A stretch of DNA of 40,035 nt. Source: an uncultured bacterium. Its GTDB lineage: Bacteria; CAYJRR01. The stretch is taken from positions 1-40,035 of the forward strand of contig CAYJRR010000025.1 in NCBI GenBank assembly GCA_964372275.1, read 5' to 3'. The notes under the pieces are model-generated. The model was not told the origin of the DNA, searched no databases, and saw only the letters and a list, made by a program, of their open reading frames with translations. Positions 10,395 through 30,755 of the stretch are shown here, in pieces; position 1 is the first letter of the stretch; each line of letters opens with the position of its first letter. A program made the position numbers and the translations under genes.

Positions 10395-11787
10395 GGAGCT
10401 GTTCGATCTGCGACGTGAGCACCACGTCGATCTGCGGATTGAACCCCTGGTGGACCCAGTTGATGTTGCCGCACGGTCCGATTACGACGATCGTCGGGAT
10501 CCCCTCGATCTGGAACACCCGGGAGAGCGTACCGTCGCCGTCGAACGCGATGGGAAAGGTGTAGCTCGCCTCCTTGATGTACTCCTCGGCGAGGTCGCGG
10601 CTCTTGTCGACGCTCACCGCGACGAAGCGCACCTGCGTCTTGTAGCGGTCGTAGATCTGCTGGTAGATCGGAAGCTCGAGCCGGCAGGGTCCGCACCAGG
10701 TGGCCCAGAAGTCGAGGACGGTGACCTGGCGCGAGAGCGTCTCGCTGTCGATCCGGCGACCGTCGAAGTCCTGCAGCGTGAACCGGGGACTCTTCTCTTC
10801 CATCCGGTCCTCGAGCGCCCCTGCTTCGGCCTCCTTTCGTTCCCGATCGCGACGGCGATCGGACTGCGAGCGCTCTTCGAGCTCGCGCGCCTCCCGCTCG
10901 CTCCTCTCCTTCTCCCGCACGGCGCGCACCTGCGACTCCGCCTCCTGGAGCAGCGCCTTCTTCTCCGCTTCTCGAAGCTTCCCCTCCTTCACCATCTGCT
11001 CCAGCGCCGCGCGCGCCTTCGCCGACTCCTCCCCGTCGTCCAACGCCGCCGACCGGGCGTAGGCCTTGGCCGCGTTGGTGCCGTCGCCGAGCGCGCGGTG
11101 GACCTCCGCGAGGTGGAACCGGATCGCGGCGTGCTCCACGCGGCGCGCCGCCTCCTGGAGCACCGCGACCGCCTCCCTCCCCTTCCCGGCCCGGTGCTCG
11201 ATCCAGCCGAGCGTGTCGAGGTAGTAGGCGCGGTTCTCGTCGACGAAGCGGAGGAACTCCTCCTGCCCGACGTCCGCTCCGGGTGGCGGACCTTCCGCCT
11301 CGGACCGGTCGAGCGTGTTCAGCGCCTGCATCACCAGGCGCCGGGCGAGGTCGAGCTTGATCCCCTTCTCGGCGTAGGCGTAGGCGACGGCGTTCTGAAC
11401 CTGGGCGCCGGCGAGGTCGGGCTCGATCTCGATCGCGTCGAGCATCGCCTCCATCCGCTCGATCTTCCCGACCTCCGCGTAGGCCATCGCCAGCTCGCGG
11501 GCGACGTGCTCCTTGGGAGAGCCTTCGACCTTGGCGTGCAGCGTCTCCAGGAGCTCGACGCGATGCGCCGGATCCCGAGTGGCCCGCGCCTCCCGCCAGA
11601 GATCCTCGGGAGGCCGGACCTTCAGGGTCGTACCCGGCGGCGCATCGATGATCATCTTCTTCCGACCGTCCTCGTCGACCACGACGCGAGCCCGCGGCTT
11701 GTCGGAACCCGGCTTGGGACACCCCGCCAGGAGGAACCCCAGGCACGTGGCGAAACCGGCGCGAAGGAGAGGGCCGCGAGCCTTCAT
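10351..11787 (-). CDS. Lipoprotein with TPR repeats and a C-terminal TlpA/ResA-like redoxin domain
   Basis: Lipobox FLLAGC; TPR motifs (NAVAYAYAEKG, YLDTLGWIEHRAG); VLDFWATWCGPC and GIPT; ATG overlaps the upstream TGA. Confidence 0.9.
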   Translation of the reverse strand: MKARGPLLRAGFATCLGFLLAGCPKPGSDKPRARVVVDEDGRKKMIIDAPPGTTLKVRPPEDLWREARATRDPAHRVELLETLHAKVEGSPKEHVARELAMAYAEVGKIERMEAMLDAIEIEPDLAGAQVQNAVAYAYAEKGIKLDLARRLVMQALNTLDRSEAEGPPPGADVGQEEFLRFVDENRAYYLDTLGWIEHRAGKGREAVAVLQEAARRVEHAAIRFHLAEVHRALGDGTNAAKAYARSAALDDGEESAKARAALEQMVKEGKLREAEKKALLQEAESQVRAVREKERSEREARELEERSQSDRRRDRERKEAEAGALEDRMEEKSPRFTLQDFDGRRIDSETLSRQVTVLDFWATWCGPCRLELPIYQQIYDRYKTQVRFVAVSVDKSRDLAEEYIKEASYTFPIAFDGDGTLSRVFQIEGIPTIVVIGPCGNINWVHQGFNPQIDVVLTSQIEQLLKEKNQRCAAESGP

Positions 11788-13088
11788 CAAGGTGCCTTTC
11801 CGAGCGCCTCGAGTTGCGCCCTCAGCCGGTGAAAGTACCCCGGCCCGATCCCTTCGTTCCGATAGCGCACGCGTCCCCCGGCATCAAGCACCAGTGCCAC
11901 CGGAACCCCCTCCACCCGGAACGCGGCGGCGTCCTCCCCGCGCGGATCGTGCCCCACCGCCACCGCCGGATCCGATTCCTGCGCCACCCGCCGCGCGTCC
12001 TCTGCGCGCCCCCCGACCGCGACGGAAACGACCTCGAACCCTTCGTTGCGGAGACGTCCGCACACCGCGAGCGCGTCGACCGACGGACTACTGTACGCTC
12101 CCCAGAACAAAAGAACCACCGGCGATCCGGCGCGCCAGGCGACCGGAGCGCCGAGTCCGTCGGTGGCACGAAGCGGAAGTGCCGGCTCGTCGACCGTCTC
12201 CCGGACCGCTCGCGGTCGGACCCGCGCCGCAAGCGACGCCGCCTCCTTCCGGCGCAGCGCCTCCACTTCGTAGGGCTTCATCGCGAGCCGGAGCGCGACG
12301 GCGTCGAGGAGTTCCCCGGCACGGAACGACTCGGGCCCCTCGCCGGCGACGGCTCGAGCGAGCGCGGTCAGCGCGTCCCTCTCGCGGCCGCAGCCGGCGA
12401 GGGCCTCTCCGTAGGACGTAAGCGTCGCGACGTCGTCGGCGAGGACCTCCGCGGCGCCCGAGAGCTCCTCCAGCGCCGCCGGGCACTCGCCCGCGCGGAA
12501 GAGCGCCGTTCCCAGCGTCCGATGGATCGCCGCCTCGGCGATCGCCACCCGCCGCTTCCAGCTCTTGGCGTCGAACCCGCGCGGCCGCTGCAGGTCCTGG
12601 ACGATCTCCAGGGCGCGGGTCGCGTACCGGTAGCCCCGCTCCAGCTCGCGCCCGGCCCGCGCGTAGGCGGCGGCCATCTCCTCCAGGAGCGCCGCGCCCG
12701 CGAGGTCGTCGACGATCTCCAGCCCGCCCGCCGCGCGCGCCATCTCCACCAGATCACCCCGGCGGGCATGGGACCTCGCCTCCTCCGCGCGCGCGACCCG
12801 CCGCACCTTGGGCGCGGCCCGTGGATCGTCGGCGACGGCCCGGAACCGCTCCGCGCGGCGGCCGAGGTCGGGCTCGACGCGGGCCTCCTCGAGTCGGACG
12901 TCGTCCGCCCCATCGGCCCCCGGCAACGCGAACGGCTCGAATCGGGCGGGCATCGAATGCTCCGCCGTCCCCGCAATCGTCGCCAGCTCGCGCCGAAGCG
13001 AAGCCGGATCGTCGTCCGACCGGTAGGGATCGCACGCGGCGGCCCCCGACAGTAGCGAAAGCGCGCACCATCGCCGCCACGTGCTCAA
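11787..13088 (-). CDS. Lipoprotein with TPR repeats and a degenerate (SxxS) redoxin domain
   Basis: TTG start after GGGAGG overlapping the upstream TGA; lipobox GAAAC; TPR (IHRTLGTALFRAG); VVLLFWGAYSSPS ... GVP. Confidence 0.75.
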   Translation of the reverse strand: MSTWRRWCALSLLSGAAACDPYRSDDDPASLRRELATIAGTAEHSMPARFEPFALPGADGADDVRLEEARVEPDLGRRAERFRAVADDPRAAPKVRRVARAEEARSHARRGDLVEMARAAGGLEIVDDLAGAALLEEMAAAYARAGRELERGYRYATRALEIVQDLQRPRGFDAKSWKRRVAIAEAAIHRTLGTALFRAGECPAALEELSGAAEVLADDVATLTSYGEALAGCGRERDALTALARAVAGEGPESFRAGELLDAVALRLAMKPYEVEALRRKEAASLAARVRPRAVRETVDEPALPLRATDGLGAPVAWRAGSPVVLLFWGAYSSPSVDALAVCGRLRNEGFEVVSVAVGGRAEDARRVAQESDPAVAVGHDPRGEDAAAFRVEGVPVALVLDAGGRVRYRNEGIGPGYFHRLRAQLEALGKAP

Positions 13089-15187
13089 CGATCCTCCCGA
13101 ATCTCCCGCCTCACGGCCTCGACCGCGCTCTGCTCCTCGGAACGGAGCTCCCGCCCGGCGAATCGAGCCAGGTAGAAGGCCTCCGCCCACGCAGGCTTGC
13201 CGGCGCGCCGCGCCAACTCCAGCGCCGTCTCGCCGGCACGGCGGATGATACCTCGGCGGCGGAAGCGACGCTCCGCATCGCGCCACCAACGCTCCGCCTC
13301 GTCGGACGGGAGCCGGCCGGAGCCCCGCACCGCCCGCCGCCGGAGTACGACGGCGATCGCCGCGGCGGCGATCACCGCGAAGGCCAGGCGCGCCGTGCCG
13401 CCGCCAAGGAGCCGTCGCAACCGTCCGGGACCGGTCGAGACGAGCGACCCCATCCGATCTCCCATCCGGTCGGCGCGCCGCCCCGCCTCTTTCAGGATCG
13501 CGAACTGGTCGAGCAGGTTGTATTCGACGACGCGCTGGATCCAGAGCCGGCGGAGGCTGTCGAACGCGCGGATCCATCCGTTGGAACGAACGCGCGAGGC
13601 CCCTCCTTGTCCCGGCGTCGGGTCGAATCGCACCCATCCTTCTCCCGCGAACGGCACCTCCACCCAGCTGTGCGCATCGCTGCGCCGGACGAGCCAGTAG
13701 TTGCCGAACTCGTTCCTCTCCCCGCCGTGGAATCCGTTCGCCATCCGGGCCGGGATCCCGAGCGCGCGCAGCAGCAGCACCATCCCCGACGCGTACTGCT
13801 CGCACCACCCGGTGCGCGTCTCGAGGAGGAATCGTTCGACCGGATCGGTCCCGGCGCCGTCCGGCGGAGCCACGAGCGAATAGGTCCAGGTTTGCAACGC
13901 CGCCTCGATGCGCCGCGCCCGGCGGAAGTCGGAGCCCCCCGCGTCGGCCCCCTTTCCGAGCGAAAGCTCGCGCGCCAGCGGTTCGATCGCCGCGCGGAGC
14001 CGGTCGGGGATCTGGAGGTACCGTCCGCCCGCCCCCGCCGGTTCGACCGCGGCCGCCCCGTCGAGACGTCGCGGGTCCGACGTCGGCGGGGCCGAGTGGA
14101 CGGTGTACGCCATCCGCCCGAACGATCGCGCCCGGTAGAAGTAGGAGTCGGTCGAGTTGACCGCGACCAAGGGGAGGTCGGCCTCCAGGTACCACATCCC
14201 CGGGAGTCCGAAGAGGACCGACAGGTCGATCGGCTCGAGCGTCACCTCCTGCGCGACCGACGCCCTCCCTCGATCCGGCGGCTCGCGGAGCGGGAATCCG
14301 GCGGCCCGCGGGCGGTCGCCGCGGAACAGCCGCTGGGCGACGATCCGCTCCTCGGACGCGTCGGAGACCGACCAACGACCGTTTTCGTACGTGTCGAGCG
14401 CGATCCCCCGCCAGTAGAGCTCCGGCTCCGGCGGGCCCGGATCGGAGAGAGAAACGCGCATCACCGGCCGGGTGTCGATCATCACCGAACCGAGCTCCCC
14501 CAGCTCCACCTCTTCCGAGAAGCCGCTGACCGACTGCGCCTCCAGCAGCCCCCCACGGAACGCGCTGATCTGGATCCGAGGAAGGATCGCGAAGAGGAGA
14601 CAGGTCCCGGCGAAGACGACGCACCCGGCGAGAAGGGCGGCCACCGCGACCGCTCGCGGGACCCGCCCGTCGGCCCCTTCCCGGCCCGGAACCCACAGCA
14701 CCCGGAAGATCGCGGTCCAGGTGCCGGCGAGGCAGAGAAGGAGGACGCTCCCCAGGAAGGCGAAGTTGAGCGTCAGGACCGCGGCCCCCATCAGCATCAG
14801 GATGGCGATCACCAGCACCTGGCCGGTGCTCGCGGGATCGCGTAGCGCAAGCAACCGATTGGCCTGTACGAGCACGAGCAGGTCGATCGCCCCCAGCACC
14901 CAGGATCCGCTCACCGCGATGTGCGCCGGCACCACGGCCAGCGCCACCAGGAACGTCCCGAGGCCGGTGGTGAACCGCCGCACCGGCGCCGTCGAACCGG
15001 TCTCTCCGGACGCGCGGCGGAGGCGGACGGCGGCGAGCAGGAGGCTGCCGCCGAGGACGACCAGCGGCACCGGGCCCACCGGACCCGCCGTCGCCAGGGC
15101 GTAGAGCCCGACCGCCGCCGAGGCGTAGGCTCCGCCCAGCGCCGCGCCGCGCACCGCGATCTCGCCCCCCGATCGCCGGCGGCTCAC
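13085..15187 (-). CDS. Membrane transglutaminase-domain protein (TgpA-like, DUF3488 + TGase + DUF4129-like)
   Basis: N-terminal TM bundle, LFAILPR, SGFSEEV, YWRGIALD; triad GWCEQYA / AHSWVEV / RFDPT; GETALE tail. Confidence 0.92.
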   Translation of the reverse strand: MSRRRSGGEIAVRGAALGGAYASAAVGLYALATAGPVGPVPLVVLGGSLLLAAVRLRRASGETGSTAPVRRFTTGLGTFLVALAVVPAHIAVSGSWVLGAIDLLVLVQANRLLALRDPASTGQVLVIAILMLMGAAVLTLNFAFLGSVLLLCLAGTWTAIFRVLWVPGREGADGRVPRAVAVAALLAGCVVFAGTCLLFAILPRIQISAFRGGLLEAQSVSGFSEEVELGELGSVMIDTRPVMRVSLSDPGPPEPELYWRGIALDTYENGRWSVSDASEERIVAQRLFRGDRPRAAGFPLREPPDRGRASVAQEVTLEPIDLSVLFGLPGMWYLEADLPLVAVNSTDSYFYRARSFGRMAYTVHSAPPTSDPRRLDGAAAVEPAGAGGRYLQIPDRLRAAIEPLARELSLGKGADAGGSDFRRARRIEAALQTWTYSLVAPPDGAGTDPVERFLLETRTGWCEQYASGMVLLLRALGIPARMANGFHGGERNEFGNYWLVRRSDAHSWVEVPFAGEGWVRFDPTPGQGGASRVRSNGWIRAFDSLRRLWIQRVVEYNLLDQFAILKEAGRRADRMGDRMGSLVSTGPGRLRRLLGGGTARLAFAVIAAAAIAVVLRRRAVRGSGRLPSDEAERWWRDAERRFRRRGIIRRAGETALELARRAGKPAWAEAFYLARFAGRELRSEEQSAVEAVRREIREDR

Positions 15188-19672: not shown

Positions 19673-21994
19673 ATGCGCAGGACGAACGGATCGGCGTGGC
19701 TGGGGCTCCTTCTCACGGCGTCCGTCGCCGAGGGGACGGCGCGGGCGGAGCATGGGGGCGGGGGCGAGGCGGAGCCGGCCCCCGCGCGGGTCTCGGCGAT
19801 CGCGGGGGCCGGGGAGTACTCCGGAGGAGCCCGAACGGGCGGACAGGGGACGCTGTTCGGCCGCGGACCGTACGACGCCGAAGATTCGGAGCTGGCGCCG
19901 AACGCCGTGCTGCGCGCCGGCGACGAGCTGTTCACCGCCGAAGGGTCGATGGCCGAGTTGGAGCTCCCGGGCGAGACGTTCGTCCGACTCGGCCCCTCGA
20001 CGACCGTCGTCCTGCAGGCGGTCGACGGAAACGGGCTGGAGATTTCGCTGGCGAGCGGCTCGGTCTACGTGTCGCGCGGACCGAACGCCCTGCCGGCCCG
20101 CGTGCAGTCGTTCGCGGGGGTGGTCGAACTGGGCGGCCGGTCGATGGCGCGGGTCACCGCGGCCGCCGACAAGGGCCAGCTCGTCCTCTCGGTTGCCGGC
20201 GGCGGGGCCGAGCTTCGCACCGACCGCACGGCCCTCTCCGTCCGCGAGGGCCAGCGGCTGGTGTGGACGCGCGACCGGACCTGGCAGGATCCGTTCCAGG
20301 CGAGCCGCGGCGACGAATTCGATCGTTGGAATGCCGAGCGCGAGCGGATCGTCCGCGGCACCCGGCGGCCGGAGTACGTCGCGGAGAACGTCGTCGGCTC
20401 GTACGAGCTGGAGGGGAACGGAACGTGGATCCGGATCGACGGTCACTGGGCCTGGCGCCGCACGGTGGTCGCCGTCGGATGGCGCCCCTACTTCCACGGC
20501 CATTGGGCCTGGTGCGAGCCCTGGGGATGGACCTGGGTCTCGACCGAGTCGTGGGGCTACACCACCTATCACTACGGTCGCTGGTACTACCGATCGCACC
20601 ACGGGTGGGTCTGGTACCCCGATTCGGTATGGGGGGCGGCGTGGGTGGTGTGGGCCGCCTTCGGTCCGAACGTCGGCTGGGCCCCCTGCGACTTCTGGGG
20701 ACGCCCGATCTACGTCTACAGCTACTACTCGTACTACGACTACGGCGCGTGGTGCTACAGCGACGCCCACTACTTCTACGGCGGCGGCGGCTACTCCGGA
20801 CGGCGGCGCTCGCGCGAGGTCACCACGACCACCTCCCGCGAGTCGGCCGGAAGCGGACGCGGCGGACGCGCCTTCTCGGCGGATCACGACGGCGCACCGG
20901 AGATCCACGCCTTCACCGCCGAGACGATCCGCCAGCACAGTCCGGTCGCCGTGCGCGATCCGCGGCGCGAGCTGACCCCCGAACACATCGCCGCCGCCGC
21001 CGGGCGCGGAGCGATCCGCGGCGTCTCCGCCGAGCAGCGCTCCGGCACCTTGCTGGCCCGCGCGGTGAAGGAGGGCAGCGTGCGCCCCGAGCCGTGGCAC
21101 GACCGATCACGCGCGCGGGGCATCGACCGTGGAGCGGGTTCCCGCGGCGCCACCGACCGCGCCGTCGGCCCGGGCCGTCGCGACGACGACGAGGCGGTGC
21201 GCGGTCGCGCGACCGGCTTCGACCGGGATCGCGCCGGCGACGGATGGCGTCCACGCGGCACGACCCTGCGCGATCGGAGCGTCGAACCGGATGCGCAGTC
21301 CGAGCCCGACCGCCCGTGGAACCCGGACACGACCGGTTCGCGCAACCGCTCCGACGATCCCCCCGCCCCAGGGCCCCGCGGCGAGCCCCGGAGCGAGCCG
21401 CGCAGCTCGCCGTCGCGCGGTCCGTCCTACACGCCGCGGACCGAGCCCCGCCGCGCCCCGTCCACGCCGGCACCGGCCCCGGCACCGGCCAAGCCGTCGA
21501 AGTCGCCGCCGCGGTCGGGCAAGCCCAAGGCGTCGTTCTCGCCGCCGGCCTCGCACACCGGCGCGGCCTCGGCGCCGGTGGCCGTCCACCGCGCGCACGG
21601 TCGCGACANNNNNNNNNNGCGGAAGGAGCCGGTCTACGCGCCGCGAAGCGAGCCGCGCAGCTCGCCGTCGCGCGCCCCGTCCTACACGCCGAGGTCCGAG
21701 CCGCGGCGCGCCCCATCCACCCCGGCACCGACCCCGGCCAAGCCGTCGAAGTCGCCGTCGCGGTCGGGCAAGCCCAAGGCATCGTTCTCGCCGCCGTCCT
21801 CGCACACCGGTGCGGCCTCGGCGCCGGCCGCCGTCCGCCGCGCGCACGGCCGCGCCGAGTACGGCGCCGCCGTCGGACGCTCGTCAACCGGTCGCCTGTC
21901 TTCCGCGATCCGCACCGGCACCGAACGCGCGGCGTCGCATGCGCCGAGGGCGACGTCATCGACGAAGCCCGCCGCCCGCGCTCGCCGGAGATAG
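19673..21994 (+). CDS. Secreted FecR-like + DUF6600-like (Trp/Tyr/Gly-rich) protein with Pro/Ser/Arg-rich tail; contains a 10-N gap
   Basis: Signal peptide; NAVLRAGDELFT...AELEL...FVRLG (FecR-like); L-GNGTW, GWRPYFHGHWAW, WGWTWVS-ESWG-TTYHYGRW, VGWAP. Confidence 0.8.
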   Translation: MRRTNGSAWLGLLLTASVAEGTARAEHGGGGEAEPAPARVSAIAGAGEYSGGARTGGQGTLFGRGPYDAEDSELAPNAVLRAGDELFTAEGSMAELELPGETFVRLGPSTTVVLQAVDGNGLEISLASGSVYVSRGPNALPARVQSFAGVVELGGRSMARVTAAADKGQLVLSVAGGGAELRTDRTALSVREGQRLVWTRDRTWQDPFQASRGDEFDRWNAERERIVRGTRRPEYVAENVVGSYELEGNGTWIRIDGHWAWRRTVVAVGWRPYFHGHWAWCEPWGWTWVSTESWGYTTYHYGRWYYRSHHGWVWYPDSVWGAAWVVWAAFGPNVGWAPCDFWGRPIYVYSYYSYYDYGAWCYSDAHYFYGGGGYSGRRRSREVTTTTSRESAGSGRGGRAFSADHDGAPEIHAFTAETIRQHSPVAVRDPRRELTPEHIAAAAGRGAIRGVSAEQRSGTLLARAVKEGSVRPEPWHDRSRARGIDRGAGSRGATDRAVGPGRRDDDEAVRGRATGFDRDRAGDGWRPRGTTLRDRSVEPDAQSEPDRPWNPDTTGSRNRSDDPPAPGPRGEPRSEPRSSPSRGPSYTPRTEPRRAPSTPAPAPAPAKPSKSPPRSGKPKASFSPPASHTGAASAPVAVHRAHGRDXXXXRKEPVYAPRSEPRSSPSRAPSYTPRSEPRRAPSTPAPTPAKPSKSPSRSGKPKASFSPPSSHTGAASAPAAVRRAHGRAEYGAAVGRSSTGRLSSAIRTGTERAASHAPRATSSTKPAARARRR
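21392..21855 (+). repeat. Imperfect ~210-bp direct duplication flanking the 10-N gap
   Basis: SEPRSSPSR...RAHGR is encoded twice (about 21392-21605 and 21647-21853) with scattered substitutions and a 6-bp indel. Confidence 0.9.
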
Positions 21995-22450: not shown

Positions 22451-24886
22451 CTAGTGTGGCGGGCCGCCCAGCGTCTCGTGGGTGGTGAGGAGGTTGACCT
22501 CTTCGAACGCGCTCGAGGGCCACTCGAGCGTGCCGACCACCCAGGCGGAGTCGGTACCGATGAGCGGCGTCGGGGTGGTGAGCTCGGCGAGGAGATCACC
22601 GTTGAGCTCGACCTTGACCGTGGCCGTCGTCGCGCCGGCGCCGTGGTTGTTGAAGGTGTGGACGACGATCGAGTAGATCCCGGTGTCCTGCGGCGACGCC
22701 AGCGAGATCACTTCCGGGCCGAATCCGGTGTCGATGTCGGCCTCCAGGAGCGGATTGTCGGCGCGGATCCCTTCCGCCCCCCACTCCGGATCGGGAACGC
22801 CGTAGTAGCAGTCGTCGGTCGTCCAGTAGCCGTAGATGTTGTTGCGGATCAGGTGCAGGTCGAGGTCCGACATGTCGGTGTCCCAGTTCAGGGTCACCCG
22901 CAGGTCGCGGAAGGGGAGCACCACGATGTCGGTGAGGTTGTCGTCGTCGCGGCCGCCGTACCCGATCTCGCCGCTGTCGGTCTCGTCGGTGTCGGTCACG
23001 ACCAGCCCGATGCGGTAGAGCCCGGCCTGGTCGGCGATGAAGCTGGGGGACTCCGCGGAGGGATCGTCGAGCTGCGCGTTCGACCCCTCCGGCCGGGTCA
23101 CGATCTCCCAGGCGTAGGTGATCGTCTCGCCGTCCTCGAAGTCGTAGCTGCCGGAGCCATCGAGCTGGATCGGACTGCCGGCGAACGCCTCGGCGCTGGG
23201 GCCGGCGTTGGCGACCGGCGCCGAGTTCACCGGCGCGAGGAGCGTGTCGTTGCAGCCGCCAAGCAGCAGGAGCGACGACACCGCCCCCGCCGTCCGGAGT
23301 CCGCCGGCCGTCACCGCCCGCACGGCGGGCGCGGCCGCCTCGCGGCGACGCGACCACCAGGCGGCCAGCGCCAGCGCCGAGACGGCGATCGTCGCGGCCG
23401 CCAGCGGCGCGCGCTCCTCGGCGGTGCCGGTCAGCCGGCAGCTGCAGCTGCTGCTTCCGAATCCGCCGTCGTCGGCGCGGCCGAGATAGAGGTAGCCGCC
23501 GTCGAGCGCGGAGGTGGCGCTGTCGGTGTTGGTGGCGCGAACCTCGACCGATCCCGAACCGCGCGGCGTGGTGACGACGATCTCGTCCCCGTTGATGAAC
23601 TGCTGCGCCGGCACCGCGACGCCGTCGAACGAGATGACCGTTCCCAGGTCGAAGCCGCTCCCGCGCACCGTCACCTGCACGCCGCCGATCGCCGGCCCTT
23701 CCGGCGGGTCGACCGACAGCACCTGCAGCGGCGCGTCCTCGGGATGGACGTAGTAGGTGTAGGCGCCGGCGCGCACACCGGTCGAGGCCGTGCCGCTCGG
23801 GGAGGCCGTCACCGCCACGTCGACCGGGCCGACCGAGTGCGGCGGGGTCACCGCGACGATCGTCTCTTCGTCGATCACCTGGAACAGCGCCGGCACGGTG
23901 CCGAACGACACCGCCTGCACGTTGATGTAGCCGTCGCCGTGGATCTGCACCTGCGTGCCGCCCGCGACCGGGCCGCTCTTCGGAGAGAGGTAGTCGATCT
24001 GCACCTGGCCCGCTGTCGTCGGACCTTCGACGTACTCTTCCGAGAGCTGGAAGTTGTCGACCAACACCGCCGAGTCGTAGATCCCGTCGCCGCGGTCACG
24101 GATGCTGAAGGTCAGCGTCACCGTCTCGCCGGGGACGACCGGCGCCTGGGTCACGAGCAGCCCGGTCGCCCCGGCGTCGCACGAGCCGCCGGAATAGATG
24201 TCGAAGCCGGTGTTCTCCAGCGAATTGCACGGCTGGTTGAAGAACGCGGAGTCGATGTTGATCGGGTTTCCGTTGATGTCGAAGACGATGTTCGCGTAGT
24301 TGTAGGACGGGCTCTGCACCTGGACCGAGAACTCGTCGTTGAACCCGAGGTTCACGAACTCGGGGTACTCGACCGACATGAAGTTGAAGTCGAACTGGAT
24401 CGAATGCATGTCGGCCGGGACGACGAAGCTGAACTTCAGGAAGACGCAGTCGTAACCGATCCCGGAGGAGCAGCTGCCGCCCATGTTCGTCCCCGACTCG
24501 GTTCCCCACGCCGACGGGTCGAGCGATTGCGGCGTCCCGGCGCCGACGACGCCCGTGCTCAGGAAGGCGAAGTTCGAACCCTGCGTCGGGATGAGCGAGC
24601 CCAGCCCCGGGAGCGCGGCGAACTGGTTCTGATGCCCGGTGATCGACGGCGAGGAGACGGTCGCCGGATCGATCCCCATCGCGGTAAGGATGTCCTCCAC
24701 GCTCGTCGCGGCCTGGCCGAGCATGCCGAGGTCGTCCTTTTCGGCGTGGTGCGCGAACTGCCGCTGCCACTGCCGCAGCCGCACGCGCGCGTCGGCCGAC
24801 AACTCGGCGTTCGCGGCCCATGCCGACAGCGGCAACACCCCCAGAACCAGAACGACCCGCCGGACCCACCCGCCACGCGTTCTCAT
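22451..24886 (-). CDS. Surface protein: choice-of-anchor-L-like domain, 2 IPT/TIG, MYXO-CTERM-like signal, internal lipobox, PKD-like and YfaP/DUF2135-like domain
   Basis: RBS GAGGGGAG then ATG at 24886; LSTG, FMSVEYPEFV...FNDEF, I-DRGDGIYDSAV; SPKSGPVAGGT / PPEGPAIGGV; PVANAG...LDGSGSYD; LRVTLNWDTDMSDLDLHL...GFGPE. Confidence 0.85.
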   Translation of the reverse strand: MRTRGGWVRRVVLVLGVLPLSAWAANAELSADARVRLRQWQRQFAHHAEKDDLGMLGQAATSVEDILTAMGIDPATVSSPSITGHQNQFAALPGLGSLIPTQGSNFAFLSTGVVGAGTPQSLDPSAWGTESGTNMGGSCSSGIGYDCVFLKFSFVVPADMHSIQFDFNFMSVEYPEFVNLGFNDEFSVQVQSPSYNYANIVFDINGNPINIDSAFFNQPCNSLENTGFDIYSGGSCDAGATGLLVTQAPVVPGETVTLTFSIRDRGDGIYDSAVLVDNFQLSEEYVEGPTTAGQVQIDYLSPKSGPVAGGTQVQIHGDGYINVQAVSFGTVPALFQVIDEETIVAVTPPHSVGPVDVAVTASPSGTASTGVRAGAYTYYVHPEDAPLQVLSVDPPEGPAIGGVQVTVRGSGFDLGTVISFDGVAVPAQQFINGDEIVVTTPRGSGSVEVRATNTDSATSALDGGYLYLGRADDGGFGSSSCSCRLTGTAEERAPLAAATIAVSALALAAWWSRRREAAAPAVRAVTAGGLRTAGAVSSLLLLGGCNDTLLAPVNSAPVANAGPSAEAFAGSPIQLDGSGSYDFEDGETITYAWEIVTRPEGSNAQLDDPSAESPSFIADQAGLYRIGLVVTDTDETDSGEIGYGGRDDDNLTDIVVLPFRDLRVTLNWDTDMSDLDLHLIRNNIYGYWTTDDCYYGVPDPEWGAEGIRADNPLLEADIDTGFGPEVISLASPQDTGIYSIVVHTFNNHGAGATTATVKVELNGDLLAELTTPTPLIGTDSAWVVGTLEWPSSAFEEVNLLTTHETLGGPPH

Positions 24887-25215
24887 TCGCATCTCCCCTC
24901 GAGCCACCGGACTCGGGCACCGCCTTCTACGTCAAGGGAACCCACCGGAGCAAGAGGCAGGCCAAGCGACCCCGCGGTCGCACCCGCTTTCGAGACCCGA
25001 CAGGTGAGTCCCGAGTTCTTTCCGAACCCGTTGGAACAAAAAGAGAAAGTGAGTCCGATCGGGCCGCCCGAAGAGACCCCTTTTCCGTCGCTGAACGCGC
25101 ACTCAAGGGGCGCTCCGGGTGTGACAGGAACCACACCCTCCCGTTTGCGCCACCGTGTCGCGATTCGCCGAAAAATGGTTGTACCGGTCGATCGTTCCAG
25201 CCGCTGCCCAATCGA

Positions 25216-27495
25216 CTACTTTTTCGACGAAAGCCGGTAGATCGAGACGCGTTCGTTCCGGTAGACGGCCTCCAACGCCTCGAACTTGGCGAGCCGGAAC
25301 TCCGGATACTTTTCGGTATCTTGCTCCAGTTCGCCGACGACGACGTAGTCGGCGTCGTAGCGACGGGCCGCGGCCCGCGCCGTCTCGAGGTCGGGGGCCG
25401 TGTAAATCTGGTCGATCGCATGACCACGCTGGGTGGCGGGCGCCCAATCGTTCCGCCACCCCGATTCGTGGTTTTTCCATCCGACCAGACCGATGCGACC
25501 GGTGAAGGTGGCGAAGCGAGATTCCCATTTGTACGCGTGGTCGGCCGCCTCGACGATCCGGCTGTCGGGCGGAAGGTGCGCGTCGACCCACGCCACCGCG
25601 GCGGCGTCGTACGGATGGCGTTTCTCGAACAGCGACAGCGGATCGAGCGTCGGTTCGTTTCCGGATCGCGTCCTCGTGAAGCCCGACGAGCGGCTGGCGT
25701 CGGCGAGAAGGGCGAACAGGAGGGACGGAAGGAGGACCGCCGCCAGCGCCGCGGCGAATCCGATCCGCGCCCGCCGTCGATCGGCGAGCGCCGTCCATGA
25801 CGCCGCCAGGAGACCGGCCCCGCCGACGGCCAGCAGGATCCACGCCTGGACGTAGGCCTTGAAGATGGTGTTCATCCGCTCCTTCTCGCCGTCGTAGAAG
25901 TCGTCGACGTAGGCGAACTCGCAGACCAGCACCACGCCGAACGCCGCCGCGACGAGGAGGCGCGCGATCCCGGGCCCCGTCCGGAGCGCGCCGGCCGGAA
26001 GGTCGGCGAGGAGCGTCCAGAGCAGCGCGATCAGCAGCACGAACGACAGGCCGCGCAGCAGGAGATGTTCGAGGGAGAGCGCCGCCGCGAGGCGAACGCC
26101 GCCGTCTCCGCCGGCGACGTGCAGCAGACCTTCGACCGGCGCCGTTCCCCACCGCTCGTAGGCGACCAGTCCGACGATCGCCAAGGCGAGCGGCAGGAGC
26201 CGCCCGCGCCGTTCCGCGCCCGACCGCGCCGCCGTCCAGGCCCAGATCGCGACGACCAGCACCCACGGACCGAAGTGGACCAGCATCGCCGCCGCATCGC
26301 TGCGGAGTGTCGCGATCCCGACCCCGCGGCCGACCTGTTTTCCGAAACCGATGTGGAACGGAAGGTAGAGCAGCACCGAGAGGAGGACGAGCGCCGCCGC
26401 CCATCCAGCCGCCGGCCGGAGCGCGGCGAACGCGCCCCGAGCGGTCCGAATCGGTGGAACGAGCGGCATCGCCATCGCCGCGACGGCGAGCGCGAGGAAG
26501 GTCGGGTAGTCCCAGGAGTTCGTCGGGTAGAGGGACCCCAGCGCGAGCGAAAGGACCGCGAGCGCGAGCAGGCGGTCCCGGCGCGGGCGCGCCGACGAGA
26601 ACGGCGACTCCCCCTCGCGCGCCATCGCCACCACCAGCGCCACCGCGGCCGCGACCAGCGGAAAGGCGATGACGTACGGGTGGAGGTCCCCCCAGAAGGC
26701 GGCGAAGGCCGGCGTCTCGTTGATCGTCCCGGGAATCACCCTCGCGGCCGCGAACCAGTCGAGCGAGCCGAAGGCCCATCGCCCTTCGTCGAACCGTCGC
26801 ACGAGGAGCTGCCGCGCGAACTCGTAGTTCCCGACGAAGGCCCCGCCGAGCGCCGCGAACATCGCGAACGCTCGGCGGCCGGTCAGGACCAGTCCGGCTC
26901 CGAACAGCGCCATGGCGAACGAGGCGTAGACGACGGGGATCCCGAGGTTGAAGAAGTCGCGCAACGGAAGGCCGGCGATGCGCCGCACCACGTCCATCAG
27001 GTGGTAGCCGTAGTAGTAGTACTGCAGCGTCATCCCCGCCATCCACGAGTCGTCCGGCGGGAAGTGCGTCGACAGCGAGAGGCGCTTGAGGATGGCGTAG
27101 TCCATGAACCGCTCGGCGAGCGGATGGACGTCGCCGTTGAATCGCGCCGCCCACACCAGGAGCGCGAAGACCAGGACCCCCAGGAGCTCGGCGAGGAGCC
27201 AGGTGCGCCCGCGCGCGCGCGCCAAGTCCCGCCACGCGACGCGGTCGGCCCAGGCGACGGCCCCGCCCGCGGCGGCGAGCGCGAAAAGCGATGCGACCAC
27301 CAGCCACGTCCCGTAGGGGACGGGCGAGATCGAGGCGACGATCCACGCCGGCCAGGCGACGAGGATCCATCCGACGGGCCGGGCGATCGTCCATCCGCCG
27401 TCGCCGAGGGACGGGAACGCGCGACGGAGGAGCGGCGCGGCGAAGACGGCCGGCAGCGCCGCCGCGAGGTAGACGCGCGCGGCGTCGGCGATCAC
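25216..27495 (-). CDS. DUF2298 / YYY-motif polytopic membrane protein (GT-C glycosyltransferase-like)
   Basis: ERFMD, FPPDDSWMAG-LQYYYYG, INETP, GDLHP, NSWDYPT, RMNTIFK, GWKNHE-GWR; many TM helices. Confidence 0.88.
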   Translation of the reverse strand: MIADAARVYLAAALPAVFAAPLLRRAFPSLGDGGWTIARPVGWILVAWPAWIVASISPVPYGTWLVVASLFALAAAGGAVAWADRVAWRDLARARGRTWLLAELLGVLVFALLVWAARFNGDVHPLAERFMDYAILKRLSLSTHFPPDDSWMAGMTLQYYYYGYHLMDVVRRIAGLPLRDFFNLGIPVVYASFAMALFGAGLVLTGRRAFAMFAALGGAFVGNYEFARQLLVRRFDEGRWAFGSLDWFAAARVIPGTINETPAFAAFWGDLHPYVIAFPLVAAAVALVVAMAREGESPFSSARPRRDRLLALAVLSLALGSLYPTNSWDYPTFLALAVAAMAMPLVPPIRTARGAFAALRPAAGWAAALVLLSVLLYLPFHIGFGKQVGRGVGIATLRSDAAAMLVHFGPWVLVVAIWAWTAARSGAERRGRLLPLALAIVGLVAYERWGTAPVEGLLHVAGGDGGVRLAAALSLEHLLLRGLSFVLLIALLWTLLADLPAGALRTGPGIARLLVAAAFGVVLVCEFAYVDDFYDGEKERMNTIFKAYVQAWILLAVGGAGLLAASWTALADRRRARIGFAAALAAVLLPSLLFALLADASRSSGFTRTRSGNEPTLDPLSLFEKRHPYDAAAVAWVDAHLPPDSRIVEAADHAYKWESRFATFTGRIGLVGWKNHESGWRNDWAPATQRGHAIDQIYTAPDLETARAAARRYDADYVVVGELEQDTEKYPEFRLAKFEALEAVYRNERVSIYRLSSKK

Positions 27496-27498
27496 CGT

Positions 27499-30072
27499 CT
27501 AGCCCGCCTCGCCCAGACGACGCGCGTCGTGGACCAGCATCGCCCCGAGCGGCTCGGGCGCCGCCGAGCCACGCCGCTTGAGATCGAGACGGAGCACCGC
27601 CCCGCCGCCGGCGTCGAAGTAGCGCACCTCGATCGGGTGCAGCCCGGGCGCGAGGCGGCGCAGTACGCCGGTCCGCGCTTGCGCCCCGTGGGTACCGCCG
27701 TTGTCGAGGACCAGCGCGCCGTCGAGGTAGACCCACGAGCCGTCGTCGGAGTGTGTGGTGAAGGCGTACTCGTCGTCGTGCTCGACGCGGAGATAGCCGG
27801 TCCACCGGGCGCAGAACGGCGCGCGGAACTCGCGCGCCTCACGGCGAAGATCGTCGCGTCGCCGGCCGTAGACCGGCACCGGGTCGACGCGCCGCGCGAG
27901 CGTCTCGCCGGTGCATCCGATGCCGTAGCGGTAGTCGGCGATCAGGCCGGGGGAAAGGGCCACGCCGGGATCGCGCGTGATCGCCGGATCGACGGCCGCG
28001 GGCTCCGGCGGGGGGCCGAAGAGCGGATCCCAGACCTCGGGCGTGGCGTAGAGCACCAGCACCACGCCGGGGCGGAGCATGAAGCGCTCCGCGCGATAGC
28101 CGGCGAGCTTCTCGCGCAGCGCCTCCTCCTGCGTCGACGAGGCGACGACCACCGGCGGCGGATCTCCGGACGGGATCTTCCCCTGGTAGTAGTCGACCTG
28201 CTTCTCGTGCCGCCGCATGTAGAACGGCATCGGCCAGTAGTCGCCGGAGGTGGTCCACACCTTGAGCGACGGACCCTCCGCCTCGAACAGCCGCTCCAGA
28301 CGCGCGATCATCGTCTCGTAGTCGCGCACCGTCTGGACGTAGACGATGCGGTGGCGGTCGTCGTCGGCGTGGACGAAGTTCACGTCCCATCCGACCTCGA
28401 ACCAGGTGGCGGAGCGGCCGGTTCCCGCCGGATCGAGCACCGCCCCCGCCGGCACCGGAAAGAGGAACGTCACCGGAACGGCCAGCGCGGCGAACGCCGC
28501 CTCCGCGACGCCCCCCCACCGCGCCCGTACCGCCGGGAGCGCACGCGCCGCCTCGCGCGCCGCGATCCCACCGAGCAGCGCCATCGGCACGGTGAAGTTG
28601 AGGTTGAGCCAGGGGGTCTTGTAGGAGATCAGCGAGTAGATCCCCCAGAGACCCCAGGCCCAGACCAGGACGAACAAACCGACCCGATCGCGGCGCCACA
28701 GGACCGCCAGCGACCCCAGCGCGGCGAAGACGAGGATCGGCAGGTCGTACTGGTGCAACAGCTCGAGCCAATAGGCGAACGGCTTGGAGTGTCCCGCCCC
28801 CTCGTTCCCGCGCCCGACCCAGGTGAGGTAGGTGGCGAACATGTCGACGGCGCCGCGCATGTTCTTGAACAGCGAAGTGAACAGGATCACCACCAGCGCC
28901 GCCCCCCAGGCGTAGGCGAGCGCCCAGTCGGAGAGCGCCTCCAGTTCGGCCGGGGCCCGCCGCTCGACCGCGCCGCACGCCCGCTCCACCGGCCCGAGCG
29001 GCAGCCCGTAGGTGCGTCCGAGCCATCGGAGCAGGAACAGCGGTCCGACCACGAAGAAGAGAAAGCCCCAGAGGGCGAGGCGCGCCAGCGGCACGAGCGC
29101 GAGCCACGGCGCCTCCAACGCGAAACGGTGGCGCCGGGTCGAAGTCGTCCAGATCGCGGCACCGGCGATGCCCGCGGCGGCGAACCACGGCAGCCACGTG
29201 CCACGCTGCACGCCGTCGGCGAAGGCGGCGATCGTGGCGACGGGAAGGACGGCGAGCGCCGCCGCCCCGGCGACCGACAGCCCGCTCGATCTCCGCGCCG
29301 GGGCCTCCGGTTCGTCCGGCCGGCAGCCGATCCACGCGACCAGCGCCGCCAGCGCGAAGACGGCGAAGGTGAGGACCGACGTCTCCTTGTTGGTGAAGAC
29401 CAATGCCAGGCTCACGACTCCGAACAGCAGCCAGTTGCGGTCGAACGGCGCTCCTCCCCGCGGGATCCGTTCGAACGAGCGCAGCAGGCAGACGAACGCG
29501 GCCAGTCCGAAGAAGACGACGTAGGTCTCGTGGATGATCGTCCGCGAGAAGTAGACGGCGGGCGGGGAGAGGGCGACCAGCCAGGCGGCGAGCGCCAGTC
29601 CCGACCAGCCGAGCCATCGGCGGATCGGCCAGAGGATCGCGATGCAGCCGGTCCCCGCCAGCGCGGGCAGCAGGCGGAGCGAGAAGACCGAAGGCCCCAA
29701 CGTGAAGAAGGGGAGGAGCCCCGCGAAGTAGAGGAAGGGACCGTGGTAGTTGGTCGGATCGTACTTGTAGTTGACGAGCCACCCGCGCCAGGTGAGCCCC
29801 AGGAACTTCCGCCCGCCCGACGCTTCGTCGAACGACACCGGCCAGTGTGCCAGGCCGTTGTAGAGCTTCATCAGGAACCAGCCGTTCACCCCCTCGTCGG
29901 AGTGGAGAGGCTTTTGCTCCAGCACCCGGAGTCGCAGCCACCCGCCGACGGCGACGGCGGCCAGGAAGACCAGCGTCCCCACCACCCGTGCCGCGCGCGC
30001 GTCGCCGCCGCCGCCTGCCGGAGCGGGTGCCGGCGAGGCGGGCGGTCTTTCGCGCGAAGCGGTCGCGGACAT
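27499..30072 (-). CDS. PMT/ArnT-like GT-C membrane protein (TIGR03663/Agl23-like) with C-terminal PA14 domain
   Basis: LHSDEG, YKYDPTNYHGPFLY, LSPPAVYFSR, KE, YKTPW, WPMPFY; PA14 motif FCARWTG...SDDGS...DNGGTHG...GLHPIEVRYF. Confidence 0.88.
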   Translation of the reverse strand: MSATASRERPPASPAPAPAGGGGDARAARVVGTLVFLAAVAVGGWLRLRVLEQKPLHSDEGVNGWFLMKLYNGLAHWPVSFDEASGGRKFLGLTWRGWLVNYKYDPTNYHGPFLYFAGLLPFFTLGPSVFSLRLLPALAGTGCIAILWPIRRWLGWSGLALAAWLVALSPPAVYFSRTIIHETYVVFFGLAAFVCLLRSFERIPRGGAPFDRNWLLFGVVSLALVFTNKETSVLTFAVFALAALVAWIGCRPDEPEAPARRSSGLSVAGAAALAVLPVATIAAFADGVQRGTWLPWFAAAGIAGAAIWTTSTRRHRFALEAPWLALVPLARLALWGFLFFVVGPLFLLRWLGRTYGLPLGPVERACGAVERRAPAELEALSDWALAYAWGAALVVILFTSLFKNMRGAVDMFATYLTWVGRGNEGAGHSKPFAYWLELLHQYDLPILVFAALGSLAVLWRRDRVGLFVLVWAWGLWGIYSLISYKTPWLNLNFTVPMALLGGIAAREAARALPAVRARWGGVAEAAFAALAVPVTFLFPVPAGAVLDPAGTGRSATWFEVGWDVNFVHADDDRHRIVYVQTVRDYETMIARLERLFEAEGPSLKVWTTSGDYWPMPFYMRRHEKQVDYYQGKIPSGDPPPVVVASSTQEEALREKLAGYRAERFMLRPGVVLVLYATPEVWDPLFGPPPEPAAVDPAITRDPGVALSPGLIADYRYGIGCTGETLARRVDPVPVYGRRRDDLRREAREFRAPFCARWTGYLRVEHDDEYAFTTHSDDGSWVYLDGALVLDNGGTHGAQARTGVLRRLAPGLHPIEVRYFDAGGGAVLRLDLKRRGSAAPEPLGAMLVHDARRLGEAG

Positions 30073-30092
30073 CGATCGGGGTGTCGTTGGCG

Positions 30093-30755
30093 TCAAGGGA
30101 TCGGCAGTCGGCCCGTCCGCAGCCACGACATCACGAACACGATCCCGGCGCCGCACGCGAGCATGTTGAGGAGCGTCCAACGCTCTCCGCGCAGCGCGCG
30201 CCACCGGAACGCTTCACCGGGTCCGGCATCGCCGCTCGCGATCCCCCGGAGGCGCGGCACGAAGCGCGGGACGCGCGCCTTGTAGGTGCGGTATTCATCG
30301 CCGAATTTCCCCTCCAGGAACTCCTCCTCGATGCTGACGATCAGCCGGTACTGGAAGGCGAAGAACAGGACGTAGAGGGCGATCACCCAGCCGATCCGGG
30401 TCAGCAGCACGAAGCCGAGTCCCAGGAGGAAGTTCCCGACGTAGATCGGATTGCGGACGACGGCGTAGGGCCCGCCCGTGGCGAGCGCCGGGGCCTTCAG
30501 CGATTTGGCACGGGTCGTCGTACCGGAATGGCCGACCGACCAGATGCGCAAGAGCTCGCCGGCGAGTACCAGCGTCGCGGACAGCGCGGTGGTCGCCGCC
30601 GCCGCCGCCGGATTGCCGCTCGCGAAGTCCGGGTGGTGGAACCACATCCCGCCGAGCGCCACGACCGCCACCGGGATCGGCACGTGATCGCGGTGCCGGA
30701 ACAGGAATTCGCGCAGGTCGAACGCCTTCGCCTCGGACCCCATGGGGCCGGCCAT
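30093..30755 (-). CDS. ICMT/PEMT-family membrane methyltransferase (LmtA-like N-terminus)
   Basis: FLFRHR..P, GELLRIW, LATGGPYAVVRNPIYVGN, EEEFL-GKFGDEY-Y-VPRFVP; start 30755 or 30743. Confidence 0.9.
   Translation of the reverse strand: MAGPMGSEAKAFDLREFLFRHRDHVPIPVAVVALGGMWFHHPDFASGNPAAAAATTALSATLVLAGELLRIWSVGHSGTTTRAKSLKAPALATGGPYAVVRNPIYVGNFLLGLGFVLLTRIGWVIALYVLFFAFQYRLIVSIEEEFLEGKFGDEYRTYKARVPRFVPRLRGIASGDAGPGEAFRWRALRGERWTLLNMLACGAGIVFVMSWLRTGRLPIP

Follow-up and report, generated by a model that had tools for sequence, protein, structure and literature searches.

Internal protein-sorting tags that arose by gene fusion are already known; the new part of the locus described here is a downstream partner with a lipobox. 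The locus lies in a stretch of 40,035 nucleotides (nt) from an uncultured bacterium (GTDB lineage Bacteria; CAYJRR01; GenBank assembly GCA_964372275.1, contig CAYJRR010000025.1, positions 1 to 40,035 of the forward strand), hereafter the window. There, a single minus-strand open reading frame (ORF) at 22451-24886 encodes a protein, P0001, in which a MYXO-CTERM-type sorting element and a putative lipoprotein signal stand back to back in the middle of the chain. Both kinds of signal, the C-terminal sorting tag and the N-terminal lipoprotein signal, are regarded as features of the chain ends, and it is there that annotation pipelines and predictors search for them. Our reading, to which we give a probability of roughly one half, is that a conserved in-frame gene fusion yields one precursor, whose junction would form a membrane hairpin to be cut by LspA and by a myxosortase.

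HVO_0405 of Haloferax volcanii is reportedly a substrate of the archaeosortase ArtA, a finding credited to Abdul Halim et al. in 2017. The passages of PMC7157517 that deal with this protein describe it as the product of two once separate genes that fused, with a tripartite sorting signal at mid-protein, which western blots found cleaved in the parent strain and not in mutants of the ArtA pathway. HVO_0405 differs from P0001 in being an archaeal, PGF-CTERM/ArtA protein and a twin-arginine translocation (Tat) substrate, in the strain-specific nature of its fusion and, as far as those passages go, in that no second lipidation signal is described for it (PMC7157517). A bacterial case is MXAN_5598 of Myxococcus xanthus, which has an internal MYXO-CTERM and is perhaps a fusion of two genes (Guo, Haft and Wall, mBio 2025, PMC11980579). 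In the Discussion of that paper, where the proposal is made for this one protein, the authors suggest a processing that leaves the N-terminal part anchored at the surface, and liken the protein to TraA/TraB, whose ORFs overlap (an overlap resembling that of the two genes in locus L022, a split relative of P0001 described below). The partner in MXAN_5598 is an outer-membrane beta-barrel/OmpA protein, for which the relevant passages mention no lipobox, whereas the partner in P0001 is a predicted lipoprotein. For TraA itself, cleavage was detected with a C-terminal FLAG tag (PMC11980579).

Each of the two signals can also be set beside its usual terminal form. With substrates of the MYXO-CTERM/MrtX pathway P0001 shares the tripartite tail of invariant Cys, helix and Arg cluster, the generic GCGC fitting the GC-x-C of its homologues; it differs in that its element is not C-terminal and scores under the cut-off, and in that the protease of its genome reaches only the family core. 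With bacterial lipoprotein signals it shares a positive n-region, a hydrophobic stretch of 10-20 amino acids (aa) and an L-x-[GA]-C lipobox, but here these lie at least 500 aa into the chain and the n-region is the basic tail of the other signal. Viral envelope polyproteins (e.g., of bunyaviruses and pestiviruses) work on a comparable plan, in which a stop-transfer helix leads through a short loop in the cytosol to an internal signal; a cut there by the host signal peptidase turns one chain into two membrane-anchored ectodomains. The likeness is an analogy only, since those proteins belong to the eukaryotic endoplasmic reticulum and to signal peptidase I, with no lipidation-dependent cuts. The NCBIfam family 'midcut-by-XrtH protein' (NF033207) bears a name that implies a cut in mid-protein and belongs to an exosortase/PEP-CTERM system; membership in it was considered and rejected, as one homologue only gave a match, at chance level (10.5 bits against a cut-off of 45).

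Compared with these precedents, what appears to be new is, firstly, a downstream partner with what looks like its own lipidation and cleavage signal, both signals being accommodated in one predicted hairpin with a shared Arg cluster, and secondly, a layout that recurs in 28 proteins of two deep clades, not in one strain, for which likely split ancestors can be identified. In the Haft preprint the terms internal, fusion, lipoprotein and choice-of-anchor have no occurrence. Given that both signals stand side by side in the interior of the chain and have persisted through deep divergence, the export and sorting machinery very probably reads them there.

Two signals within one open frame

The elements on which the argument turns are the following:

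22451-24886, minus strand: whole fused ORF (P0001), 811 aa plus stop; a single open frame with no internal stop
23342-23464, minus strand: internal MYXO-CTERM-type sorting element, aa 475-515, made of Cys motif, helix and RRR
23294-23341, minus strand: variable linker, predicted to be cytoplasmic, aa 516-531, between the RRR and the second hydrophobic stretch
23252-23293, minus strand: second hydrophobic stretch and lipobox, aa 532-545 (TAGAVSSLLLLGG-C), with Cys545 at 23252-23254

The frame opens with an ATG at 24886 (or, alternatively, with a GTG at 24907) and closes with the stop codon at 22451-22453. A preliminary description of this ORF, made from the sequence alone, had its strings and coordinates correct letter for letter, and it rightly saw no stop between the RRR and the lipobox, the frame being continuous in the window. 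Along the protein the order is choice-of-anchor L domain, two TIG domains, Cys motif, helix, RRR, lipobox, PKD domain and TerD-like domain. The G+C content at third codon positions (GC3) is 0.94 over the whole frame, 0.93-0.95 in both halves and 0.93 across the junction. A 1000-aa ORF occupies the same region of the opposite (plus) strand, and its GC3 of 0.65 makes it a shadow frame of a GC-rich gene.

At the junction, GGFGSSSCSCRLTG holds Cys481 (23444-23446) and Cys483 (23438-23440) and is separated by seven residues from an uncharged hydrophobic stretch of 20 aa, APLAAATIAVSALALAAWWS (aa 493-512; 23351-23410), to which RRR is appended (aa 513-515; 23342-23350). The MYXO-CTERM signature (i.e., Cys, hydrophobic helix and Arg-rich cluster) is therefore present. 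Instead of ending there, the chain runs on into EAAAPAVRAVTAGGLRTAGAVSSLLLLGGC with Cys545, followed by NDT and 263 more residues. Altogether 296 residues follow the Arg cluster, so the sorting element is not C-terminal; the lipoprotein signal, which begins at about aa 513 of 811, is not N-terminal either. Ahead of Cys545, the uncharged h-region and the lipobox satisfy the lipobox pattern, which we modelled on PROSITE PS51257.

How often such a layout turns up by chance was assessed with a regular expression asking for a Cys, a hydrophobic stretch, a basic cluster, a second hydrophobic stretch and [GAS]-Cys, at least 150 aa from both ends. In the whole genome it matched 2 of the 7,645 stop-to-stop frames of at least 300 aa, one being the fused ORF itself and the other an Arg/Pro/Ser-rich frame of non-coding appearance. 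The arrangement is more than chance.

Nor is the fusion an assembly error; it is genuine. The draft genome comprises 225 contigs at 94.6% completeness, and the window, one whole contig of it, holds two runs of N, i.e., scaffold gaps, at 4476-4575 and 21609-21618, the second in the Pro/Ser/Arg repeat-rich tail of a FecR/DUF6600 ORF (19673-21994, plus strand) and flanked by near-identical repeats. In such a draft one could suspect that the sequencing or the assembly went wrong, or that a stop was lost recently, in the manner of a pseudogene, in a single metagenome-assembled genome (MAG). We nevertheless put the chance of an artefact at next to nothing. The preliminary description had advised looking at read coverage over 23250-23450, and this interval is bridged, without differences or indels, by Logan contigs from three runs of two studies (X1 covering 22451-23647, X2 22912-23411 and X3 22667-23432), one of which may be the source sample of the genome. 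In addition, 27 other fused proteins come from several sources, and the GC3 of 0.93 is sustained through the junction.

These relatives come from a search of 5.8 billion proteins, restricted to lengths of 446-1420 aa, in which the best 8000 word-sharing candidates were scored and 46 matched. P0001 and 10 full-length relatives (800-832 aa, 46-62% identity over 93-100% of the query) form clade F1. Clade F2, found by way of a distant fused protein, P0016, consists of P0016 and 16 proteins 43-77% identical to it (748-793 aa). There are thus 27 fused proteins besides P0001 (10 and 17), or 28 in total, and for one fused member, the metagenome locus L053, the layout was confirmed at the DNA level. 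Where they carry a label at all, it is currently hypothetical or merely 'MYXO-CTERM domain-containing'; the two that JGI names 'MYXO-CTERM domain-containing protein' belong to F2. A search of representative proteins with an alignment of the family (A1) listed 150 rows, mostly giant TIG/PKD repeat proteins of 1,000-7,000 aa, among which P0007 is the only fused representative, a listing from which no count of fused against split forms is derivable. Among 40 other genomes, all same-domain kin, no orthologue of P0001 was found, only domain-level matches.

What the fused proteins conserve at the junction is narrow. In the F1 alignment the mean pairwise identity is 0.55-0.59 over the folded domains, 0.30 over the 79 columns of the junction and 0.17 over the linker, and the sole invariant residues of the junction are C481, C483, R513, R514 and C545 (11/11), with N546, next to C545, also invariant. 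Clade F2 has the same layout but a single upstream Cys, and its invariant residues are G443-C444, R467 and G478-C479 (17/17). As far as alignments can tell, this is a signal-like pattern of conservation. It also disposes of the prospect, raised in the preliminary description, of homologues conserving neither Cys motif, both motifs being invariant in each fused clade.

The distances behave in keeping with this layout. The linker from the Arg cluster to the second hydrophobic stretch measures 0-16 aa in F1 and 0-12 aa in F2, and all 28 proteins stay in frame across it; the lipobox Cys follows the first Arg of the cluster by 15-37 residues in 28/28, the value of 37 belonging to P0009 alone. The net charge of the hairpin loop is +3 to +6 in all 11 F1 proteins. 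The Arg cluster directly adjoins the second hydrophobic stretch in 3/11 F1 proteins and, as RRRR, in 6/17 F2 proteins, and can for this reason be said to serve as the n-region of the second signal, which upholds the earlier suggestion that the RRR tail does double duty. The lipobox pattern is satisfied in 23/28; the other five read VPLAGC or GPLAGC and fail only by the Pro at -4. With the MYXO-CTERM model TIGR03901, four of the 10 F1 homologues pass the cut-off (20.3, 22.0, 22.2 and 25.5 bits) and three fall just under it (17.8, 17.9 and 19.7 bits), and 5/17 F2 members reach E <= 0.001.

Split relatives and the origin of the fusion

The preliminary description had proposed comparing fused homologues with split gene pairs, and both turn out to exist: next to the 28 fused proteins there are three distant loci (L022, L054 and L056) that carry the halves as neighbouring genes. 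Translated searches (tblastn) gave 31 loci in genome contigs, with both halves in one of them (L022), and 36 in metagenome contigs, of which L053, L054 and L056 have matches spanning both halves, the other 33 matching within aa 30-318 among the matches listed. In the split loci gene 1 stops at the Arg cluster and gene 2 opens with a lipoprotein signal. Thus in L022, from a MAG titled Myxococcota bacterium, gene 1 ends in ...GGSTSGCSTAKTGPGGTWIAVLILGIARRRRA and gene 2 begins with MTFLWALGFTVGC; the end of gene 1, ...ARRRRA-TGA, overlaps the ATG of gene 2 (ATGA), and the Arg codons CGA AGG AGA AGG (L022:2790-2830) spell a Shine-Dalgarno-like AGGAGA 6 nt before that ATG. In the two low-GC metagenome contigs, gene 1 ends in ...LRIRQR (L054) and ...LRIRKRE (L056), each with a TAA stop, and the lipoprotein gene, with GTG as its start codon, lies 48 and about 90 nt further on, respectively, in L054 in the same frame.

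Each half is also found by itself. The standalone first halves P0252 and P0253 terminate in Cys motif, helix and RRR, and the standalone second halves P0214 and P0206 begin with lipoprotein signals. In the genome of P0001, the second half has at least seven paralogues that stand alone as lipoproteins, with an '...AC-N-D/E' or similar lipobox at their true N-terminus. These PKD plus TerD-like paralogues are found at C29:21393-25374 (three in tandem) and on contigs C53, C41, C159, C57 and C19, and in most of them Cys-Asn-Asp/Glu follows the lipobox.

On the strength of the split forms and paralogues, the mid-chain elements can be identified as the former C-terminal signal of gene 1 and the former N-terminal signal of gene 2. 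The split relatives, the paralogues and the invariance of the Cys residues together bear out the first interpretation of the two junction signals as MYXO-CTERM-type and lipoprotein signals. The word polyprotein, used at that stage, needs qualifying: the single chain stands, though the protein is better termed a fusion of two neighbouring genes. To bring such a fusion about, all it would presumably take is a small indel that shifts the frame where the genes overlap by ATGA, or the loss of a single in-frame stop (as the arrangement in L054 would allow). When the second halves are placed in a tree with the paralogues as root, each of four groups (F1, F2, the split proteins and the standalone proteins) has 100% support, and their order is a polytomy, which leaves one and two fusion events indistinguishable. 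That split and fused forms both occur would further point to a conserved functional pairing of the two halves, to judge by sequence of a glycan-binding-like surface protein with a PKD/TerD-like lipoprotein.

A predicted hairpin and its proposed processing

While the reading of architecture and evolution is well supported, it is from sequence that we infer the cleavages, the topology, the lipidation and the final location of the products. Since there is no stop codon, ribosomes make one chain of 811 aa, and we hold it highly probable that a single precursor is made. Its first half would be a Sec-exported surface protein (choice-of-anchor L and two TIG domains), with the N-terminal signal peptide starting export. 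The tail helix (aa 493-512), oriented N-out/C-in, would stop transfer and keep the Arg cluster cytoplasmic; the second hydrophobic stretch would then re-enter the membrane N-in/C-out, the second half would be exported in its turn, and the junction would form a hairpin. The order of the elements and the charge of the loop fit the positive-inside rule, so that the topology is coherent on paper, and we consider the hairpin quite probable. With that order, each Cys motif would come to lie on the outer side of the inner membrane, beside the helix that its enzyme would recognise. Lgt and LspA would lipidate the protein and cut it at Cys545, setting the second half free as a lipoprotein, a cut that we think likely. 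The Cys481/483 motif would be lipidated as well and cut by the myxosortase-family protease of the genome, freeing the first half for display at the surface, which it might reach via a type II secretion system; for this cut the balance is favourable, though by less. A hairpin peptide of about 60 aa would be discarded. Taken to its full extent, i.e., a hairpin polyprotein with a shared Arg cluster and two mirror-image, lipidation-dependent cuts that release two lipid-anchored surface proteins at 1:1, the proposal is tentative, and we would rate it slightly below even odds.

Machinery of the kinds that this scheme invokes is encoded in the genome. Lgt (TIGR00544, 131.8 bits, cut-off 118.9) and LspA (TIGR00077, 111 bits, cut-off 73.95) are over their cut-offs, as are a GspD secretin (528.9 bits, cut-off 351) and BamA. 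A protease encoded at C37:28058-28804 (minus strand) belongs to the myxosortase family, with 126.2 bits on the family-core model NF040914 Mrt_core (cut-off 100), and is under the cut-offs of the equivalog models (MrtP 184.1 of 250, MrtC 139.4 of 195, MrtX 136.6 of 180); it is the one among five CPBP proteases of the genome to reach the family core. TIGR03901 passes its cut-off at four places in the genome, compared with none in the 14 control genomes. Of its 16 matches listed there, 15 were inspected, one in a 46-aa frame being dropped, and in 12 of these 15 no more than 22 residues separate the end of the match from that of the frame. The true C-terminal tails resemble the junction element (...IPACGCSLTGRRGPAAGIVVAVALAALAIALRRRAA; ...GGFGCRVAAAP...AFRRRQRR), and the three internal matches are the fused ORF and two without a Cys motif.

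As to lipidation at the first motif, the enzyme acting on the MYXO-CTERM Cys is a question left open, with an Lgt-like enzyme suspected, in the relevant passages of Guo, Haft and Wall (PMC11980579). An Lgt-like enzyme being suspected, the Lgt-like paralogues of this genome become candidates. On C54 (25478-28169, minus strand) an lspA (111 bits) is succeeded in the same orientation by two divergent Lgt-like frames; these frames score 84.1 and 107.8 bits, under the TIGR00544 cut-off of 118.9, and the canonical lgt (131.8 bits) lies elsewhere, on C87 (17064-17969). If the same acyltransferase (Lgt or an Lgt-like paralogue) modifies both Cys, P0001 would be a built-in test substrate for MYXO-CTERM lipidation. 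More generally, it would be a natural substrate whose cleavage products differ greatly in size from the precursor, in the way that HVO_0405 served for the archaeosortase, and could be used to study myxosortase specificity, the acceptance of a non-terminal signal by Lgt and LspA, and the enzyme that lipidates the MYXO-CTERM Cys.

Several observations count against a hairpin cut on both sides. The MYXO-CTERM model, which the preliminary description had wished to see run on the ORF, does not reach its 20-bit cut-off on the element of P0001, giving 14.7 bits when a 49-aa fragment is scored and 14.1 bits when the whole genome is scanned; the GVDTG_CTERM model gives 15.7 bits against a cut-off of 29, and three of the 10 F1 homologues have no TIGR03901 match at E <= 1. 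A loop of only RRRR, as in 6/17 F2 proteins, is tight for a hairpin. Open-access phrase searches found no report of an internal lipobox, or of Lgt or LspA acting on a signal that is not N-terminal. In-frame GTGs are available at the junction, both in P0001 and in L053. Finally, either cut alone would separate the halves, and it is solely the invariance of both Cys motifs that argues for the need of both cuts.

This last point leads to the reading in which a single cut is used, e.g., that of LspA, after which the uncut hairpin would keep the first half in the inner membrane (or the converse), and the unused Cys motif would be a relic or serve another purpose. Logic allows it, and so do the sub-threshold score of the P0001 element and the F1 homologues without a match; moreover, an uncleaved fraction of a MYXO-CTERM protein was still surface-exposed in an mrtX mutant, according to the pertinent passages of PMC11980579. 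A relic would nonetheless be expected to decay across such divergence, and both Cys motifs are invariant in 11/11 and 17/17 proteins though the rest of the junction is 17-28% identical, which makes us regard a single cut as unlikely.

The GTGs, in turn, mean that the lipoprotein could also be made separately. The second half might come mainly from an in-frame start, with the read-through product minor or unproductive: in P0001 the GTGs at 23321-23323 (V522) and 23312-23314 (V525) lie in the linker, between helix and lipobox, in L053 a GTG just before the Arg pair would give M-RRLGNRK...AAGC, and the split relatives begin gene 2 at an ATG or GTG near the tail. With no stop in the way, however, each ribosome on the first half reads through, and the candidate starts lack a clear Shine-Dalgarno sequence (in P0001 there is a GAGG 14 nt before the GTG at 23321-23323). 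The linker varies in length and yet keeps the frame in 28/28, and no standalone first half (about 515 aa) at least 46% identical to P0001 occurs among the 8000 scored candidates of 446-1420 aa. We therefore find a main origin at an internal start improbable.

There is also the view that nothing is cut, P0001 being a two-helix membrane protein with two periplasmic domains whose conserved Cys serve as disulfide partners or metal ligands. In its favour, hairpins of this kind, in which a short basic loop joins two membrane stretches, are common. On the other hand, the split orthologues and the paralogues use both motifs as genuine terminal signals, the lipobox pattern is kept as closely as described above, with only a Pro at -4 to fault in the five exceptions, and Lgt and LspA are present in the genome. 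An uncleaved protein is, in our estimation, very improbable, and the doubly cut hairpin is the reading that we carry forward.

Domains and surroundings

The remaining features of P0001 are the following:

24815-24886, minus strand: N-terminal signal peptide of the signal-peptidase-I type, aa 1-24 (MRTRGGWVRRVVLVLGVLPLSAWA/AN), read from sequence
24056-24664, minus strand: choice-of-anchor L domain, aa 75-277 (NF038133, 71.8 bits, cut-off 27)
23510-23998, minus strand: two IPT/TIG domains, aa 297-459 (PF01833, 70.8 bits in two stretches)
22973-23227, minus strand: PKD domain, aa 554-638 (PF22352, 30.8 bits, and PF18911, 28.0 bits; cut-off 27 each)
22460-22912, minus strand: C-terminal beta-sandwich with a predicted TerD-like fold, aa 659-809 (AlphaFold2 model and fold matches)

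The N-terminus looks like a Sec signal, with a putative cleavage site between MRTRGGWVRRVVLVLGVLPLSAWA and AN. The choice-of-anchor L domain is matched by NF038133 in 11/11 F1 and 17/17 F2 proteins, and its AlphaFold2 model (predicted local distance difference test, pLDDT, 79.3) is a beta-sandwich. The best fold matches of this model are of middling quality and comprise VesC, a Vibrio protease (C-terminal domain, Z 9.5, root-mean-square deviation, rmsd, 3.3, 130 residues aligned), carbohydrate-binding modules (CBM61, Z 8.6) and MAM domains; the model thus suggests a binding module, and no more than that. Within the TIG region, aa 389-459 are in addition matched by NF058597.

The second half (aa 545-811, pLDDT 88.4) is predicted to consist of a PKD domain and a further beta-sandwich. 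The PKD-like domain announced after the lipobox in the preliminary description is confirmed by Pfam matches over cut-off and by fold matches to PKD domains at Z 10-11. The label YfaP-like, given there to what follows, finds no support: the last domain (aa 652-811), like the same domain of two relatives, matches no Pfam family at E <= 10 (the HMMER filters drop weak matches), no YfaP structure is among the fold-match lists, and the predicted fold is TerD-like. Its best fold matches are a TerD homologue (2qz7_B, Z 11.9, rmsd 3.1, 136 residues aligned) and TerD (2kxt, Z 10.3); in terms of the model, this is a resemblance of fold only. Foldseek against the PDB returned only generic Ig-like and PKD matches. 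A complex prediction for the two halves (aa 28-475 and aa 546-811, alignment A1) scored 0.00, which is uninformative either way.

Directly upstream of the fused gene, on the same strand (25216-30204, minus), are genes for a DUF2298 membrane protein (295 bits) and for a protein of 901 aa that combines a PMT-type glycosyltransferase region with a PA14 domain. These genes may form an operon with the fused gene; the neighbourhood is not conserved in L022, L054 and L056, and a scan of the locus for promoters and terminators gave nothing exceeding shuffled controls. With regard to the host, a phylum-level genome search returned this genome alone, and the titles of loci with relatives of the gene are mostly Myxococcota. 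Either the lineage is poorly sampled or the sorting system extends beyond the named Myxococcota.

Two other loci of the genome pertain to its CPBP proteases. On C49 (about 10730-13305), a CPBP protease (PF02517, 68.5 bits; myxosortase core 26.1 of 100) is preceded, at a distance of about 300 nt, by a 480-aa frame whose tail is MYXO-CTERM-like (...GGFFSCSVLG...LATLARRRRS, 13.4 bits), and by analogy with MrtJ/JDVT-CTERM the two may be a dedicated pair of protease and substrate. At C8:10858-12399 (minus strand) there are two CPBP proteases in tandem, whose best match, under the threshold, is the archaeomyxosortase MrtA (67.4 and 63.1 bits, cut-off 200).

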